Below, piece after piece: positions 23,957 to 30,971 of a stretch of 64,000 nucleotides of DNA. Numbering within the stretch: the first letter of the stretch is position 1; each line of letters begins with the position of its first letter. The position numbers and the translations under genes are program-made. The stretch is from Sandaracinobacter sp. (GTDB lineage Bacteria; Pseudomonadota; Alphaproteobacteria; Sphingomonadales; Sphingomonadaceae). The notes below the pieces were generated by a model, which was not told the origin of the DNA, did no database searches, and was given only the letters and a program-made list of their open reading frames with translations. Location: NCBI GenBank assembly GCA_031425455.1, contig JANPJJ010000152.1, positions 1,411 through 65,410 on the forward strand. The letters run 5' to 3'.

Positions 23957-24505
23957 TCAGAAACGATCTTCCCGGTCGTGCGGGAACAGCAGCTGCGGAA
24001 CCTGGGTCAGCGTCCAGCTGTCCGTCGGCACCGGCCGGTCCAGCACCCACACCATGTCATAGCGGTCGTCCGGCCAGTCCTCGGGGCATGAAACGCCCCC
24101 TGCAATCAGCCGCGCCAGTCGCGCAATCTGGTGATGGTGCCAGGCGATCAGCACCGGCGACGGCGCCAGCAGCGCGGCGGCCGCAACGGCCGGCTCCTCG
24201 CCCTCGGCATGGCTCGCATCGATAGGCAGCCCCAGGGCGTGCGAAAGCGGCTCCACGGTTCGCTGCGACCTCAGGCTCGGGCTCAGCTCGGTGGCGGCGG
24301 CGGCGAAAATGGCGCGCGGCGGCAGGATGCCGGCGTGATGCGGCTCGCCGTTTCGCGGTGCGAAGAAGTGCACCAGGGCCGCAGCGCGCTGCCAGCCCCT
24401 CACCGTGAGCTCGTGCTTGGCGTGGAAGCCATCGATGCACACGCTCCGGTCCGGCCCGCCGTGCACCGGCTTTTCGGCGTGGCGAATGATCATGATCTTC
24501 GGCAT
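23957..24505 (-). CDS. Histidine phosphatase superfamily protein
   Basis: N-terminal IIRHAEK (RHxE), LTVRGWQRA, RSQRT, VLIAWHH; no signal peptide. Confidence 0.78.
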   Translation of the reverse strand: MPKIMIIRHAEKPVHGGPDRSVCIDGFHAKHELTVRGWQRAAALVHFFAPRNGEPHHAGILPPRAIFAAAATELSPSLRSQRTVEPLSHALGLPIDASHAEGEEPAVAAAALLAPSPVLIAWHHHQIARLARLIAGGVSCPEDWPDDRYDMVWVLDRPVPTDSWTLTQVPQLLFPHDREDRF

Positions 24506-24566: not shown

Positions 24567-25658
24567 ATGATCTGGAGGTGGGGCAGGCGGTGCGGGACGC
24601 TGCTGGCAGCGATGATCGGTATGGCCGGCGCCGGGATCGCGGCCGAAGCCGGCGATGCGGCACGGCCGGCGCCGGGGCGGATCGTCGCAATCGGCGATCT
24701 GCATGGGGACTGGTCGGCCTGGCGCGACATCGCACGCGACGCCGGGCTGGTGGATGCGAACGGCAGCTGGACCGGCGGCAGCACCGTCCTGGTGCAGACC
24801 GGCGACGTCCCCGATCGCGGCCCCGATACGCTGAAAATCGTTCAGGACCTGATGCGCCTGCAGCGCGAGGCCCCGCGCAGCGGCGGCCGGGTGATCGCCA
24901 TGGTCGGCAACCATGAGGCGATGAACGTCACCGGCGACCTCCGCTATGTCTCCGCCGGCGAATATGCGGCCTTTGTCGACAGCAATTCGGAACGCCGCCG
25001 CGCCAAGGTGTTCGATACCAACCGCGCGACCATCGAGTCGGCCTATCGCAAGGCCAAGCCAGGCATGTCGGGCCGCGACATCCAGGCGGCCTGGAACGCC
25101 CGAACGCCGCTCGGCCTGGTCGAGCATCAGCTCGCCTGGAGACCCAATGGCGAGATCGGCCGCTGGGCGATCGGCAACCCCGGCGTGGTGCTGCTGGGCG
25201 GCACCCTGTTCGTGCACGGCGGCCTCAGCGCGGCCTACATCGGGCGCTCGATCGATGACATGAACCGCCGCATCGCTGCTGCGCTGAAGGCCCGCGACAC
25301 CGCCGATAGCTCGATCATCAACGACCAGGCCGGGCCGCTCTGGTATCGCGGGCTCGCGCGCAAGCCGGGCGCCCCGGCCGAGACCGCCCCGGAAGACGGC
25401 AAGGCGCCGGTGCCGCTGTTGTCGGTGGAGGAGGAATTGGCCAAGGTGCTTGCCGCCTTCGGCGCCGATCGAATGGTGATCGGCCACACCCCGAATTTGC
25501 CCGGCATTGCCATCCTGAACGAAGGCCGGCTGGTGCGGATCGATACCGGTATTTCGGCGGTCTACGGCGGTACCCTCACCTGGCTGGAGATCGTCGACGG
25601 CAGGCTGGTCCCGCATGTCGTCGCCAGGTCGGCGCCGGCGAGTGAAAAGGGGAAGTGA
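24567..25658 (+). CDS. Secreted PPP-type metallophosphatase (Shewanella-like/Shelph)
   Basis: Signal peptide; GDLHG, GDVPDRG, GNHE, FVHGG, VIGHT and RIDTG motifs. Confidence 0.92.
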   Translation: MIWRWGRRCGTLLAAMIGMAGAGIAAEAGDAARPAPGRIVAIGDLHGDWSAWRDIARDAGLVDANGSWTGGSTVLVQTGDVPDRGPDTLKIVQDLMRLQREAPRSGGRVIAMVGNHEAMNVTGDLRYVSAGEYAAFVDSNSERRRAKVFDTNRATIESAYRKAKPGMSGRDIQAAWNARTPLGLVEHQLAWRPNGEIGRWAIGNPGVVLLGGTLFVHGGLSAAYIGRSIDDMNRRIAAALKARDTADSSIINDQAGPLWYRGLARKPGAPAETAPEDGKAPVPLLSVEEELAKVLAAFGADRMVIGHTPNLPGIAILNEGRLVRIDTGISAVYGGTLTWLEIVDGRLVPHVVARSAPASEKGK

Positions 25659-26716
25659 TGCTGAAACAGCTATTCGTCGCCGTCACGGCGCTGCTTCTGG
25701 TCTCTCCCGCAACGGCAAAGGCGCCAAAGCCGCTGTTCGCCGACAGCGAGGTCATCCGGCTCACCATCAAGGGCCCGATCGTCGCGCTTCCCGCCAGCAA
25801 GCCGGACGCCGTCGTCGACGGAACGTTGAGCGTTCAGGGCGCCGCGCCCGAGACCCTGCCTGTCACGCTGCAGCTGCGCGGGATCACCCGGCGCAAGCGC
25901 GAGACCTGCGCCTTCCCGCCGCTTCGAGTCGAGTTCCCCGCAAAACCGCCGAAAGGATCGCTGTTCCAGGGGCAGGACAAGCTGAAGCTCGTCACCCACT
26001 GCCGCCGAGACCCCGGGTTCCAGCAGAATGTGCTGCTGGAATATGCCGCCTATCGCCTGTTCAGCGAGCTGTCGCCCACCAGCTTCGCCGTGCGGCTGGC
26101 ACAGATCGATTATGTCAACGACAAGGGCCAGCCGATCACGTCCAGGCTGGGCTTCTTCATCGAGGATGTGGGCGACATGGCCGACCGCCACGGCCTGCAC
26201 CAGATGAAGCCGAAAGGCCGCATCCCGTCCACCCAGCTCGATCCCAGGGCGTCCGTTCGCTTCGCCTTGTTCCAGGACATGATCGGCAATCTGGATTGGG
26301 GCATGAACGGCGGGCCGGCGGGCGAGACCTGCTGCCACAACGCCCGGCTTGTCGCCGCGAAGGCGGATGCGACATCCGGCTTCGCCCCGATCCCCTACGA
26401 CTTCGATTATTCCGGGCTCGTCGACGCGCCCTATGCGGTGTCTCCCGCCGAAATCCAGAGCGCCGGGGTGAAGGTGCGGCGCTATCGCGGTTTCTGCTCG
26501 CACAATGCCGGGGTCGCGCCCATGGCGGAGACCTTCCAGGCAAAACGGGCCAGTCTGTTGAAGGTAATCGCGGAGGTGCCGCTGATGGATGCCGGCACGC
26601 GAAAGAAGGCGACCTCCTACCTCGAGGATTTCTTCGAGCGGATCGCAACGCCCGATGCGATCGAGGCAAAGCTCCTGAAGACCTGCGTGAAGGTGGTCAC
26701 GGTTCCCGCCAGCTGA
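25655..26716 (+). CDS. Secreted protein with CotH-like atypical kinase motifs
   Basis: Signal peptide (..SPATA|K); LRG.TR, KLKLVTHC, LLEYAAY, FFIED, IGNLDW...HN, PIPYDFD. GTGATG overlap with the phosphatase stop. The kinase fold is inferred. Confidence 0.6.
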   Translation: MMLKQLFVAVTALLLVSPATAKAPKPLFADSEVIRLTIKGPIVALPASKPDAVVDGTLSVQGAAPETLPVTLQLRGITRRKRETCAFPPLRVEFPAKPPKGSLFQGQDKLKLVTHCRRDPGFQQNVLLEYAAYRLFSELSPTSFAVRLAQIDYVNDKGQPITSRLGFFIEDVGDMADRHGLHQMKPKGRIPSTQLDPRASVRFALFQDMIGNLDWGMNGGPAGETCCHNARLVAAKADATSGFAPIPYDFDYSGLVDAPYAVSPAEIQSAGVKVRRYRGFCSHNAGVAPMAETFQAKRASLLKVIAEVPLMDAGTRKKATSYLEDFFERIATPDAIEAKLLKTCVKVVTVPAS

Positions 26717-26722
26717 AAACGG

Positions 26723-27514
26723 CTAGTCGACCCCCGCAGGGTCCGGCCTTCCGCGCGCTGCGGGCGTGCTCGTGTCATCCACGATAATCGTCGCATTCTC
26801 GATCTCCACGGTCGCGGGCGTGCCCTCCTTGCCGTGCCGCGGACCCTTGCCGTTCGGATGGTCCACCTCCACGAGGTAGCGCTTCATGTCGCTTCGCTCG
26901 CCATAGCGAAGCAGCCACAGCATCACGAAGCACAGGTTGAACGCCGCGGAACTCAGCATGGCGAGCTCGACCGCGCCGATTCCGGCCGCAAGCCCGATGC
27001 TGATCGACAGCAGGATGAACAGAAGATCGCCCGAGCTCTTCAGCGTGTTGCGATACCGCGCCGCCCCGGCGATCCCGGCCAGCGAGAAGGCGAGCGCCAG
27101 GGAATGCTGGACGATGACGACGATGCTGGTGACGACCAGCGGCAGCATCACGATGGTGTCCACCAGCGACTGGTCATATTCGTGCGGGTCGCGGATGTTC
27201 ATATAAACCCAGCTGACCGGGAGCGAGGCCAGCAGCGCGCCGAGGATCGCAACGGCGAGCCAGACCAGGCTCCCCAGGAACGAAGGCGTGCTGCCGGCCG
27301 CCGCGGGCGCGGCCCGGGCCAGCTCGGCAATGCCGTCTACGGTCGGCGCCAGCTCCCCGGCCTGGGCAAGAAGGCCCTGCACCCGGCCGATCGGCAGGCT
27401 TTCCTGAAGCGCGGGGTCGATCCAGAGCACGACCAGAAGCGCACCCGCCATCAACGCGTAGTAGAGAACAAGTGTCGAAAGAAGTCGGATTGCCGGCACG
27501 TCATGCTCCCCCAC
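26723..27514 (-). CDS. DUF4956-like membrane protein
   Basis: SLALAFSLAGIAGAARYRNTLKSSGDLLFILLSISIGLAAGIG matches the DUF4956 pattern (L.G.L...RFR...K...D..F.......G.A.G). Confidence 0.78.
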   Translation of the reverse strand: MGEHDVPAIRLLSTLVLYYALMAGALLVVLWIDPALQESLPIGRVQGLLAQAGELAPTVDGIAELARAAPAAAGSTPSFLGSLVWLAVAILGALLASLPVSWVYMNIRDPHEYDQSLVDTIVMLPLVVTSIVVIVQHSLALAFSLAGIAGAARYRNTLKSSGDLLFILLSISIGLAAGIGAVELAMLSSAAFNLCFVMLWLLRYGERSDMKRYLVEVDHPNGKGPRHGKEGTPATVEIENATIIVDDTSTPAARGRPDPAGVD

Positions 27515-27605: not shown

Positions 27606-28472
27606 TCAGCCGCTCGCCAGCGCCACCAGGTCGGCCGTCAATCTCGATGCGTGCGTCACGCCCAGCCCGTGCGGTGCGCCCTCATATTCCAGCAGCCGGG
27701 CGCCGGCGATGCCTGCGGCCGCCCTGCGGCCGGTCGCATCGATCGGCACCACCTTGTCGGCTGTGCCGTGGATCACGAGCGTTTCGGGCGGAAACGCCGA
27801 CAGGTCGGGCCGGAAGTCGGTCTGGCCGAACGCCTTCATCGCCGCCAGCGTCGGCCACAGCCCTGCCATCATGGCCCAGCGATGGGTCTGCTGGAGCACC
27901 TCTGCGCTCAGCGCATCCGCCTTCGGCGGCATTCCCAACATGTCCTTCACGGCCGTGCCAACCCCGGCTCCGGCCCCGTAAAACTCCTTGATGAAAGACG
28001 CCATGAACGCAGCCCGATCGGCCCGTACGCCCTCCACCATCTCGGCCAGCGCTTCCGCCGGCACGCCGTCTGGATTGTCCGGTGCCCGGGCGAGCGACGG
28101 CACCACCGCCGCCACCAACGCAGCCGCCGTCACCGCCCTGCCGCCGTGTCGCGACAGGTAGCGCGCCACCTCGCCGCCACCCATCGAAAAGCCGGCGAGC
28201 GTCACGCCGTCGGTGGCGCCGGTTGCGGCCATCACATCGGCAAGATCGTCGGCGAACCCGTCATAGTCATAGCCGGACCAGGGCTGGTCGGAGCGGCCGA
28301 ACCCGCGCCGGTCGTAGGCAATGGCCCGGAACCCGGCTTCCGCCAGGCCCAGCGCCTGCACATCCCAGCTGTCCGCATTCAGCGGCCAGCCGTGGATCAG
28401 CACCACCGGCCGGCCTTCGCCCCAGACTTTCACGTACAGCCGGGTCCCGTCGCGTGTTGTCACATAGGGCAT
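27606..28472 (-). CDS. Non-heme chloroperoxidase/arylesterase-like alpha/beta hydrolase
   Basis: LIHGWPL, YDRRGFGRS, GFSMGGG nucleophile, HGTADKVVP, GAPHG. Confidence 0.93.
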   Translation of the reverse strand: MPYVTTRDGTRLYVKVWGEGRPVVLIHGWPLNADSWDVQALGLAEAGFRAIAYDRRGFGRSDQPWSGYDYDGFADDLADVMAATGATDGVTLAGFSMGGGEVARYLSRHGGRAVTAAALVAAVVPSLARAPDNPDGVPAEALAEMVEGVRADRAAFMASFIKEFYGAGAGVGTAVKDMLGMPPKADALSAEVLQQTHRWAMMAGLWPTLAAMKAFGQTDFRPDLSAFPPETLVIHGTADKVVPIDATGRRAAAGIAGARLLEYEGAPHGLGVTHASRLTADLVALASG

Positions 28473-28540: not shown

Positions 28541-30829
28541 CTAGACCTGGCCACCGGTGGCAGGCGCCACGAAACTGTCGAGCACCATCTTCACGCCCGC
28601 CTGGTCGAAGTCGATTTCCAGCTTGTTGCCCTCCTGCCCCTTCACGGTGCCCATGCCGAACTTGGCGTGGAACACGCGGGCGCCGACATCCAGATCATCG
28701 CGAGGCCGCCCGCCGACCGTCGAGGACAAGGCGCGCGCCTCGATGGTCCGCTGTGGCTGCAGCCCCCCCCGGGCGCTGGCCCGCTCCCAGCCGGGTCCGC
28801 GCCCGGCGCCGCGTTCCAGATGGGCGAACGGGTCGCTCTCGTCCAGCGCCGCTCGCCACAGGCTCGCGCCCCCCGACAACGTGGTTTCGCTCTCCACATG
28901 CTCCGGCGGCAGCTCGCCGATGAATCGCGACGGGATGGCGCTGGTCCACTGGCCATAGACCCGCCGGTTCGCGGCGTGCAGAATGGTCGCCCGCCGCCGC
29001 GCCCGGGTGATCCCGACATAGGCCAGCCGCCGCTCTTCCTCCAGCGCCGCATTGCCGTTCTCGTCCAGCGCCCGCTGGCTCGGGAACAGGCCTTCCTCCC
29101 AGCCGGGCAGGAACACATGGTCGAACTCCAGCCCTTTCGCCGCGTGCAGGGTCATCATCGTCACCTTGGCCTCCGCGTCGGTGCGATCATTCTCCATCAC
29201 CAGTGCCACATGCTCCAAAAAGGCCTGCAGATCGGTAAAGCCCTCCATCGCCCGCACCAGCTCGGCCAGATTGTCCAGCCGCCCCGCAGCCTCAGCGCTG
29301 CGGTCGGCTTCCAGCATGGCGATATAGCCGGCCTCCTCCAAAATGGTCTGCATCAGCGCGCTTTGGTCCAGCTGCGCCATCTGGTCCCGCCAGCGCCGGA
29401 TCGCCGCCAGCAGCTCGGCCAGCGATCGCCGCGCCGCCGGGGGCAGCTCGTCCGTCTCCACCAGCATCTGCGCTGCCAGCGGCAGAGTCAGCCCGGTGCC
29501 CCGTGCATGCGCCGCGACCTTCGCCAGGCTCTTGTCGCCGAGCCCGCGCTTGGGGGTGTTCACGATCCGCTCGAAGGCCAGGGCATCGTCGGGCTGCGCC
29601 ACGATCCGCAGATAGGCCAGCGCATCACGCACCTCGGCCCGCTCGTAGAAGCGGAACCCCCCCACGATCCGATAGGGCAGGCCGATCGCGATGAACCGGT
29701 CCTCGAATTCGCGGGTCTGGTACGAGGCACGAACCAGGATCGCAATCTCGGTCGGGCTCGCCCCCTCGCGCAGCAGCCGCTCGATCCGTTCGCCGACCAG
29801 CCGCGCTTCTTCCGGCCCATCCCAAATCGCGATGCTCGCCACCTTCTCCCCGGCGTTGCGCTCGGTCCACAAGGTCTTGCCGAGCCGACCCTTGTTGTGG
29901 GCGATCACATGCGCGGCAGCTGCCAGGATATGCGGAGTGGAGCGATAATTCTGCTCCAGCCGGATGATGCGTGCGTCGGGAAAGTCATGCTCGAACCGAA
30001 GGATGTTGGCGACTTCGGCGCCGCGCCAGGAATAGATTGACTGGTCGTCGTCGCCCACGCAGCAGATGTTGCCCTGGCCCCCCAGCGAGCGCGCCGCCAG
30101 CAGCGTCAGCCAGCGATATTGCGCGGCATTGGTGTCCTGATACTCGTCGACCAGCACATAGCGGAACCGCCGTTGCCATTCACCCAGCACGTCGGGATGG
30201 GCAACGAAGATCCGGATCATGTGGAGCAGCAGGTCGCCGAAATCGGCCGCGTTCAGCGCCTTGAGCTGCGCCTGATAGGCGGCGTAAAGCTCGGCACCGC
30301 GTCCATCGGCAAAAGCAAAGGATTCGCCGTTCGGAACCTCCTCAGCCGTTTGCCCCCTGTTCTTCCACCGATCTATCAGCCCGGAAAGCTGCCGCGCCGG
30401 CCAGCGCTTCTCGTCGATCCCGGCCTCTACGATGATCCGCTTCAGCAACCGAAGCACATCGTCGGTATCCAGGATGGTAAAGTTGGACCGAAGCCCCACC
30501 AGTTCGGCATGGCGCCGAAGCTTGCGTGCGGCGATCGTGTGGATGGTGCCGACGAAGGTCTTGCCTTCGGCGCCGGGGCCGATCATCGCGACCAGCCGGT
30601 GCCGCATCTCGGCCGCGGCCTTGTTGGTGAAAGTGACGGAAAGAATTTCGCTCGGCCAGGCGCGCTTTCGCGCCAGGATTTCGGCCAGCCGTGCGGTCAG
30701 CGCCCGGGTCTTGCCCGTCCCCGCCCCCGCCAGTACCAGGACCGCGCCATCCAGCAACGTCGCAGCCTCGCGCTGCGGCGGGTTCAGCCCCTGCAACCAG
30801 GGCGGATCTTCGGCGGGGAGGGAGGCCAT
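28541..30829 (-). CDS. uvrD: UvrD/PcrA/Rep ATP-dependent DNA helicase
   Basis: AGAGTGKT, TFTNKAA, VDEYQD, VGDDDQSIYSWRGA, QNYRS, TLHAAKGLEF, EERRLAYVGITRA; C-terminal Tudor-like HAKFGMG. Confidence 0.96.
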   Translation of the reverse strand: MASLPAEDPPWLQGLNPPQREAATLLDGAVLVLAGAGTGKTRALTARLAEILARKRAWPSEILSVTFTNKAAAEMRHRLVAMIGPGAEGKTFVGTIHTIAARKLRRHAELVGLRSNFTILDTDDVLRLLKRIIVEAGIDEKRWPARQLSGLIDRWKNRGQTAEEVPNGESFAFADGRGAELYAAYQAQLKALNAADFGDLLLHMIRIFVAHPDVLGEWQRRFRYVLVDEYQDTNAAQYRWLTLLAARSLGGQGNICCVGDDDQSIYSWRGAEVANILRFEHDFPDARIIRLEQNYRSTPHILAAAAHVIAHNKGRLGKTLWTERNAGEKVASIAIWDGPEEARLVGERIERLLREGASPTEIAILVRASYQTREFEDRFIAIGLPYRIVGGFRFYERAEVRDALAYLRIVAQPDDALAFERIVNTPKRGLGDKSLAKVAAHARGTGLTLPLAAQMLVETDELPPAARRSLAELLAAIRRWRDQMAQLDQSALMQTILEEAGYIAMLEADRSAEAAGRLDNLAELVRAMEGFTDLQAFLEHVALVMENDRTDAEAKVTMMTLHAAKGLEFDHVFLPGWEEGLFPSQRALDENGNAALEEERRLAYVGITRARRRATILHAANRRVYGQWTSAIPSRFIGELPPEHVESETTLSGGASLWRAALDESDPFAHLERGAGRGPGWERASARGGLQPQRTIEARALSSTVGGRPRDDLDVGARVFHAKFGMGTVKGQEGNKLEIDFDQAGVKMVLDSFVAPATGGQV

Positions 30830-30832
30830 CCG

Positions 30833-30847
30833 GAACAGATAGCGAAC
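30833..30847 (-). promoter_or_regulatory. Alphaproteobacterial LexA (SOS) box upstream of uvrD
   Basis: GAAC-AGATAGC-GAAC on plus (GTTC-N7-GTTC on minus), 3 nt before the ATG. Confidence 0.75.
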
Positions 30848-30971
30848 CTCCGTCCTGTGCGGCAAGGCCCGTGCTCCGAAATCTTATTGCACATAGATTG
30901 ACGAAACATGTCCTTGCGCGCAACTGGCAGGTGGATGTCGCCGCCGATTGAGGATGGTCCATCGAGGGGAG

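Follow-up and report, generated by a model that had tools for sequence, protein, structure and literature searches.

A putative minimal, exported branch of CotH-like kinases encoded in a conserved cassette with a Shelph-type phosphatase and a DUF4956 membrane protein

I analysed a stretch of 64,000 nucleotides from a Sandaracinobacter species (assembly GCA_031425455.1, contig JANPJJ010000152.1, positions 1,411 to 65,410 of the forward strand), hereafter the window. At 25655-26716, it contains a gene lying between a phosphatase gene and a DUF4956 gene. A reading made from the letters alone (the sequence-only reading) had described the product as a hypothetical secreted protein with an ordered set of CotH-type kinase motifs. 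In this study, the protein is assigned to a new branch of CotH-like kinases, minimal, exported, and disulfide-bonded, that is encoded in a new conserved three-gene cassette. The gene and its sites are as follows.

25655..26716, + strand: CotH-like kinase-fold gene, 353 amino acids from GTG 25655 or 352 amino acids from ATG 25658, with six conserved Cys
25655..25717, + strand: predicted Sec signal peptide, residues 1-21, MMLKQLFVAVTALLLVSPATA with KAP following the cleavage site, without a lipobox Cys
25985..25987, + strand: K111, candidate ATP-binding Lys, in strand 109-113 directly before an alphaC-like helix
26039..26041, + strand: E129, candidate alphaC Glu, in the middle of helix 120-139
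26288..26341, + strand: candidate catalytic-loop region N212-x-D214 ... C226-C227-H228-N229, which has about 10 inserted residues in comparison with CotH
26399..26407, + strand: D249-F-D251, candidate metal-binding, DFG-like Asp, equivalent to P-W-D247-Y-D249 of Bacillus cereus CotH in the hhalign and hmmsearch alignments

The secreted-protein open reading frame (ORF) proved to be real. The 353-residue product begins with a predicted Sec-type signal segment, and a hydrophobic, signal-like N-terminal segment is found in 112 of the 116 family members in the main alignment described below. In the database copy of the protein, the start is ATG 25658 and the length is 352 residues. The protein has exactly six Cys residues (85, 116, 226, 227, 281, and 344), and the mature part has exactly six in 114 of the 116 members. 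This pattern, together with the N-terminal segment, fits export and three disulfides, in line with the periplasmic disulfides that had been proposed. All named homologues carry the label "hypothetical protein", and a 2026 preprint on new kinase-like families mentions neither CotH nor the family of the window protein.

Are the kinase-type motifs conserved? The main conservation alignment comprises 116 sequences with 28-69% identity to the query, and a second alignment comprises 58 sequences. All the motifs named in the sequence-only reading are present and in the order given there: L74-R-G-I-T-R79, K109-L-K111-L-V-T-H-C116, and L127-L-E129-Y-A-A-Y133 in the N-terminal half, and then F167-F-I-E170-D171, I210-G-N212-L-D214-W ... 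H228-N229, and P247-Y-D249-F-D251 in the middle and the C-terminal part. It was found that R75, R79, K111, E129, E170, R178, N212, D214, H228, N229, D249, and D251 are invariant in the 116 sequences. Since this invariance extends over such a range of identity, the motifs are not due to chance. Five of the six Cys residues are also invariant there, and the sixth, C344, is present in at least 90% of the sequences and is invariant in the 58-sequence alignment. E129, N212, D214, H228, N229, D249, D251, and the Cys-Cys pair (C226-C227) are invariant in both alignments. The core of the protein is G-N212-L-D214-W-(10 residues)-C-C-H228-N229 ... P-Y-D249-F-D251. The spacing is 18 from K111 to E129, 103 from K111 to D214, and 20 from N229 to D249.

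The fold was predicted twice with AlphaFold2 (AF2), and the models were compared with the PDB by Foldseek. Model 1 (24 sequences) has a predicted local distance difference test score (pLDDT) of 79.5. Its first match is B. cereus CotH (5jda/5jd9; E 2e-7, probability 1.0, template modelling (TM) score 0.44), and PI4K/PI3K-type kinases rank after it. Model 2 (116 diverse sequences) has a pLDDT of 93.1 and a predicted TM-score of 0.90, and its top matches are PI4KIIIb, VPS34, PI3K, ATM, and mTOR (E 1e-3 to 1e-2, TM about 0.3, probability up to 0.96). Nearly all the significant and top-ranked matches of both models are kinases. Because two independent models retrieve almost only kinases, the predicted kinase-like fold is robust, as the sequence-only reading had expected. 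In model 2, a strand at 109-113 (K111) and a helix at 120-139 (E129) are followed by strands at 146-154 and 160-169, the latter ending with F-F-I-E170. Then come helices at 172-178 and 197-209, N212-x-D214 ... H228-N229, strands at 230-234 and 243-247, and D249-F-D251. This secondary structure and the invariant residues follow the order of the protein kinase-like fold: beta3-Lys, alphaC-Glu, hinge, catalytic-loop Asp/Asn, and DFG-like Asp.

The link to CotH was assessed at the sequence level. The window protein itself has no match to Pfam CotH (PF08757) at E up to 1. When the 58 members were searched against all Pfam families at E up to 1, CotH was the sole family matched by more than one member. 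Eight of the 58 members matched CotH, all below the gathering threshold of 23.8 bits, with a best E of 8e-4; two sub-threshold relatives score 17-18 bits against CotH. For hhalign, a CotH alignment was made from canonical CotH domains of the same phylum and the B. cereus CotH sequence. The local comparison of the family with CotH gave E values of 1.6e-4 to 2.9e-4 with a probability of 40-51%. Its best score of 39.5 is about twice that of the best shuffle: the 13 column shuffles ranged from 11.4 to 19.8, and reversal of the profile gave 18.3. The profile similarity to CotH is weak but specific. The global mode of hhalign (probability 92%, E 9e-8) was discarded as evidence, because one of the shuffled controls gave a higher-scoring degenerate one-column artefact.

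The candidate metal-binding residues align with those of CotH, and the candidate catalytic Asp lies in a shared motif. The family hidden Markov model (HMM) matches B. cereus CotH with E 5e-4, laying CHN...PYDFD on VHN...PWDYD. The core of B. cereus CotH is Q-N222-F-D224-G-F-V-H228-N229 ... P-W-D247-Y-D249, in which the distance from D224 to D247 is 23, the same as that between D228 and D251 of Bacillus subtilis CotH. Mutation of D228 or D251 of the B. subtilis protein abolishes the kinase activity, according to the statement in 10.1101/469122 that cites Nguyen et al. 2016. Both hmmsearch and hhalign align H228-N229 and D249 with H228-N229 and D247 of CotH; thus, the parallel that had been drawn for the HN and DFD residues was borne out. 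The invariant N212-x-D214 matches the N-x-D motif of CotH (B. cereus D224, which is B. subtilis D228). D214 is assigned as the candidate catalytic Asp from this shared motif and from its conservation in all the sequences, since hhalign takes another path across the insert. E224/D225, the position chosen by hhalign, was rejected as the catalytic Asp because it is variable in the 58-sequence alignment. Extended hhalign alignments are collinear over the whole domain, with RG...R on the RG/GSSTR of CotH and E170 on a conserved CotH Glu, while a CotH segment of about 50 residues is missing from the window family.

One claim of the sequence-only reading had to be corrected. It contrasted the protein with spore-coat CotH, to which it ascribed accessory domains. 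The spore-coat CotH of Bacillus has only one domain and a length of about 360 residues (the 5jd9 chain has 359 residues, with a profile match at 46-348). It is the CotH proteins outside spores that typically carry accessory domains, and their open frames have 659-2270 residues.

The neighbouring genes of the cassette are as follows.

24567..25658, + strand: exported Shelph-type PPP-family metallophosphatase (Pfam Metallophos), with GDLHGD, GDVPDRG, and GNHE motifs
26723..27514, - strand: DUF4956 multi-pass inner-membrane protein (Pfam PF16316), convergent with the kinase-like gene
23957..24505, - strand: histidine-phosphatase-superfamily-like protein, an accessory cassette member with an RHAEK motif and lacking a signal peptide; its gene is divergent from that of the phosphatase

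The TGA stop codon of the phosphatase gene (25656-25658) overlaps with the ATG start codon of the kinase-like gene. Among PDB entries, the phosphatase is closest to 2z72/1v73, cold-active protein-tyrosine phosphatases of Shewanella (E 6e-23). I examined 80 loci from Sphingomonadales, Caulobacterales, Marinicaulis, Rhizomicrobium, and Steroidobacteraceae. The phosphatase gene lies directly upstream on the same strand in 67 of the 71 loci with enough flanking sequence, and the DUF4956 gene lies directly downstream in 65 of 72 (54 convergent and 11 co-directional). The histidine-phosphatase-like gene is divergently upstream in 15 of 63 loci. There are no other recurrent neighbours in the 80 loci; beyond the three core genes, nothing occurs in more than about 17 of them. 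Furthermore, one protein (P0186) is a natural fusion of a signal peptide, the phosphatase, and the mature kinase-like domain without its own signal peptide. The cassette context is the strongest new evidence.

The same trio is found in relatives at about 35% identity in a rearranged form, with a larger metallophosphatase, extra genes of Phytase-like and hydrolase-like type, and, in some cases, two paralogues. In three gammaproteobacterial loci (L103, L104, and L105), the kinase-like gene points towards an operon whose products are a metallophosphatase of about 600-656 residues, DUF4956, and an LCAT/alpha-beta-hydrolase-like protein of about 320 residues. The operon in L103 and L104 also encodes a Phytase-like/SdiA-regulated beta-propeller protein, and two kinase-like paralogues flank the phosphatase in L105. 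The possibility that the gammaproteobacterial metallophosphatases of about 600 residues are kinase-domain fusions was rejected, as the family HMM does not match their C-termini.

Some further features of the window locus may be described here. The protein encoded at 23957-24505 is small and cytoplasmic, has an RHAEK...LTVRGWQRA...AWHH pattern, and is highly conserved where present; sub-threshold His_Phos_1 matches were found in three orthologues. A longer call of a 275-residue ORF from GTG 24784 is probably an over-extension of this gene. A search for a Pho-box-like sequence (TGTCA-N4-6-TGTCA) gave no matches, and a sigma-70 promoter scan of the divergent intergenic region found none. Downstream of the DUF4956 gene are an alpha/beta hydrolase gene (27606-28472, - strand; Abhydrolase_1, E 9e-29) and a gene for a UvrD/Rep-type helicase, judged by motifs (28541-30865, - strand). 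Neither is conserved in the other loci.

In streptococci, clostridia, and bifidobacteria, canonical cotH has been published as forming a contiguous group with the genes for DUF4956 and a VTC-type polyphosphate polymerase (10.1101/768473; 10.1101/2024.04.20.589940). In a phylum sample of 151 genomes, four of the six DUF4956 genes outside the window genome are within 2 kb of a canonical CotH domain, and one genome (G142) has the gene row DUF4956-CotH-VTC. In 14 control genomes, CotH, VTC, and DUF4956 were found in the same three non-Bacillus species. The DUF4956 gene at 26723..27514 is the sole one in the window genome. Thus, given the same adjacency to DUF4956 as that of canonical CotH, the window family sits in the "CotH slot", and this is evidence independent of sequence and structure. 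The view of the protein as a minimal Gram-negative CotH branch, as proposed in the sequence-only reading, is supported by the CotH profile similarity, the predicted fold, and this context.

An alphaproteobacterial genome (G132; locus L106, G132:C1:1362000-1376000) has a DUF4956-VTC-PHO4 phosphate-transporter row without CotH, which suggests that the DUF4956/VTC pair has its own phosphate or polyphosphate role. The VTC domain (PF09359) has no match in the whole window genome and is absent from the recurrent neighbours, while the window genome has PPK1 and PPK2. The window DUF4956 protein matches only positions 15-127 of the 169-position profile and may be without the C-terminal part of other members. 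A DUF4956 protein of G142 (L108:4456-5145) has a weak MgtC-family match (E 9e-4).

The family is large. It comprises more than 4,080 clusters at 90% identity; at 50% identity, 3,025 representatives have E values below 1e-3. It is present in at least 598 species-level genomes. Its members occur in free-living Alphaproteobacteria and Gammaproteobacteria, some of them in cultured strains such as Sphingomonas rhizophila KACC 19189 and S. hankyongi SE220. The distribution is patchy: the family was found in 6 of 121 genomes of the order sample, including the window genome, in 1 of 27 other genomes of the same taxonomic family, and in none of the 150 other genomes of the phylum sample. Thus, the cassette is accessory. 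There are rare multidomain members: P0271 (567 residues) has a methyltransferase-like region at the N-terminus, P0196 (550 residues) has an N-terminal extension, and P0188 (528 residues) has a C-terminal extension.

Taken together, it is rather probable, judging from models and sequences, that the protein is a Sec-exported, triply disulfide-bonded, kinase-fold enzyme, a remote minimal relative of CotH, acting as an envelope writer opposite the exported phosphatase. An active phosphotransferase may thus be paired with a phosphatase as writer and eraser, and the cassette suggests an undescribed phosphorylation system in the Gram-negative cell envelope. In the proposed mechanism, K111 and E129 would position the nucleotide phosphates, while D214, as the catalytic-loop Asp, and N229 and D249, as metal ligands, would carry out phosphoryl transfer like their CotH equivalents. 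Fixed by the invariant vicinal pair C226-C227, the insert of about 10 residues may remodel the catalytic loop. The kinase-like enzyme would be the writer, the co-translated Shelph-type phosphatase would be the eraser, and the DUF4956 membrane protein might serve as an anchor, a regulator, or a supplier of the phosphodonor.

Several observations weigh against this interpretation. By the Pfam threshold, the protein is not a CotH member. Searches of the protein and of two family profiles against Pfam, NCBIfam, and PDB sequences gave no match, even at E up to 1-10, and PF08757 has zero matches in the six-frame translation of the whole genome. The hhalign probability is only 40-51%, and hhalign puts the CotH catalytic Asp on the variable position 224/225 across the insert, not on D214. 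The TM-scores are low throughout both Foldseek searches (0.3-0.44). The likeness to Bacillus CotH expected of an AlphaFold model was obtained with model 1, and CotH is not among the top 50 matches of the higher-confidence model 2; thus, the CotH-specific structural link depends on the model. The N-lobe roles of K111 and E129 are suggested by the predicted order of secondary-structure elements and by spacing only, and position 111 is not Lys in 7 of the 58 sequences of the second alignment (Lys in 51, Arg in 4, and His in 3). Finally, the periplasm is generally held to lack ATP, which leaves the phosphodonor unexplained.

Supply of a phosphodonor through DUF4956 or polyphosphate would be an attractive idea. 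A bolder scheme is that the cassette is a self-contained system for reversible periplasmic phosphorylation, in which DUF4956 moves or presents ATP, or polyphosphate made by PPK or VTC, across the inner membrane to the CotH-like kinase, whose action the Shelph phosphatase reverses. I regard this full scheme as unlikely. If it is true, a phosphodonor-conducting DUF4956 would also explain the grouping of canonical CotH, DUF4956, and polyphosphate polymerase genes.

Alternatively, the protein might be active as a phosphotransferase with a kinase fold but modify no protein. Its substrate would be a glycan, lipid, or small molecule of the envelope, such as an exopolysaccharide, a glycosphingolipid or lipopolysaccharide sugar, or an inositol phosphate, and the phosphatases next to it would serve metabolism instead of signalling. 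This is doubtful but deserves consideration, since the high-confidence model matches lipid kinases best (PI4K, VPS34, and PI3K) and the canonical cotH-DUF4956 clusters adjoin Pel polysaccharide loci (10.1101/768473). The cassette of one homologue borders polysaccharide-synthesis genes, the divergent cassettes include the Phytase-like/SdiA-regulated protein, and elsewhere DUF4956 is paired with VTC (polyphosphate polymerase) and PHO4 (phosphate transporter) genes. However, CotH, the closest characterised sequence relative, phosphorylates Ser in proteins (10.1101/469122), the conserved partner most closely resembles a protein-tyrosine phosphatase, and no glycan or lipid gene is recurrent among the 80 loci.

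Atypical kinase folds such as those of SelO and SidJ carry out other chemistry. Given these precedents, the window protein could use a kinase fold for AMPylation/nucleotidyl transfer, as in SelO, or for polyphosphate-driven phosphoryl transfer. An ATP-poor periplasm would favour a different donor, the usual partner of DUF4956 is a polyphosphate polymerase (10.1101/768473), the genome has its two PPK genes, and the putatively remodelled catalytic loop has the invariant Cys-Cys. On the other hand, the D...N...D triad has the same arrangement as in CotH, which transfers phosphoryl groups, and the genome has no VTC gene. Such a departure seems quite unlikely.

It is very unlikely that the protein is a catalytically inert pseudokinase or scaffold which binds or regulates the phosphatase or DUF4956. 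The tight gene coupling, the one fusion with the phosphatase, and the non-Lys residues at position 111 would be consistent with such a role, but E129, D214, N229, D249, and D251 are invariant down to 28% identity, and such invariance is usual in active enzymes and not in pseudokinases. It is most improbable that the kinase resemblance is spurious, with coincidental motifs and a misleading fold prediction: the low TM-scores, the variation of the top matches between models, and the absence of a significant direct sequence match are outweighed by the almost exclusive retrieval of kinases by both models, the CotH profile score above all shuffled controls, and the DUF4956 context, which independently points to CotH.

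No protein kinase is known to work in the Gram-negative periplasm. A large, conserved, exported kinase-fold family tied to a phosphatase and a membrane protein would open this question to direct testing. The family would also make the CotH-DUF4956(-VTC) association of many bacteria, as yet unexplained, accessible through a simple model with a single domain, and more than 4,000 clusters labelled "hypothetical protein", including some from cultured strains, would gain a testable function.

How does the cassette compare with known systems? The upstream phosphatase shares the GDxHG / GDxxDRG / GNHE motifs with the Shelph PPP phosphatases (1V73/2Z72; E 6e-23). Shelphs are not known as obligate partners, within an operon, of kinase-fold proteins. 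FAM20C, Fjx1, and VLK are atypical kinases of the eukaryotic secretory pathway that work in an oxidising extracytoplasmic compartment and are stabilised by disulfides, as predicted for the window protein. They differ in their defined ATP supply in the Golgi lumen, and there is no detectable sequence match or top structural match between them and the window protein. The PI3K/PI4K lipid kinases are the best Foldseek matches of model 2 and share H-x-x-N-like and DF-type catalytic-loop motifs. However, the TM-score is about 0.3, none of the 58 members scanned matches Pfam PI3_PI4_kinase, and the window protein is without the helical accessory domain and is predicted to be exported and disulfide-bonded.

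In Gram-positive pel loci, the cotH-VTC-DUF4956 group (Whitfield et al., 10.1101/768473; 10.1101/2024.04.20.589940) likewise has a secreted CotH-type protein adjoining a DUF4956 membrane protein. Unlike this group, the window cassette has no VTC gene in its genome, no pel locus, and no FN3, and has a conserved exported PPP phosphatase. With CotH itself (PF08757; B. subtilis/B. cereus, 5JD9/5JDA), the window protein shares the predicted kinase-like fold, the N-x-D, H-N, and P-(W/Y)-D-(Y/F)-D-x-x-G motifs, the RG...R element near the N-terminus, the conserved Glu after the hinge strand, an extracytoplasmic site (a predicted one for the window protein), and DUF4956 as a genomic partner. The identity in the structural alignment is about 14%, and the N-to-D spacing is 20 in the window protein and 18 in CotH. 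The insert of about 10 residues with the invariant Cys-Cys between the candidate catalytic Asp and the HN dyad is found in the window protein only, while CotH alone has a further stretch of about 50 residues from its hinge to its alphaE-like helix. The window family is further distinguished by six conserved Cys residues and a predicted Sec signal peptide, and its partner is a Shelph phosphatase in place of the VTC polyphosphate polymerase of CotH.

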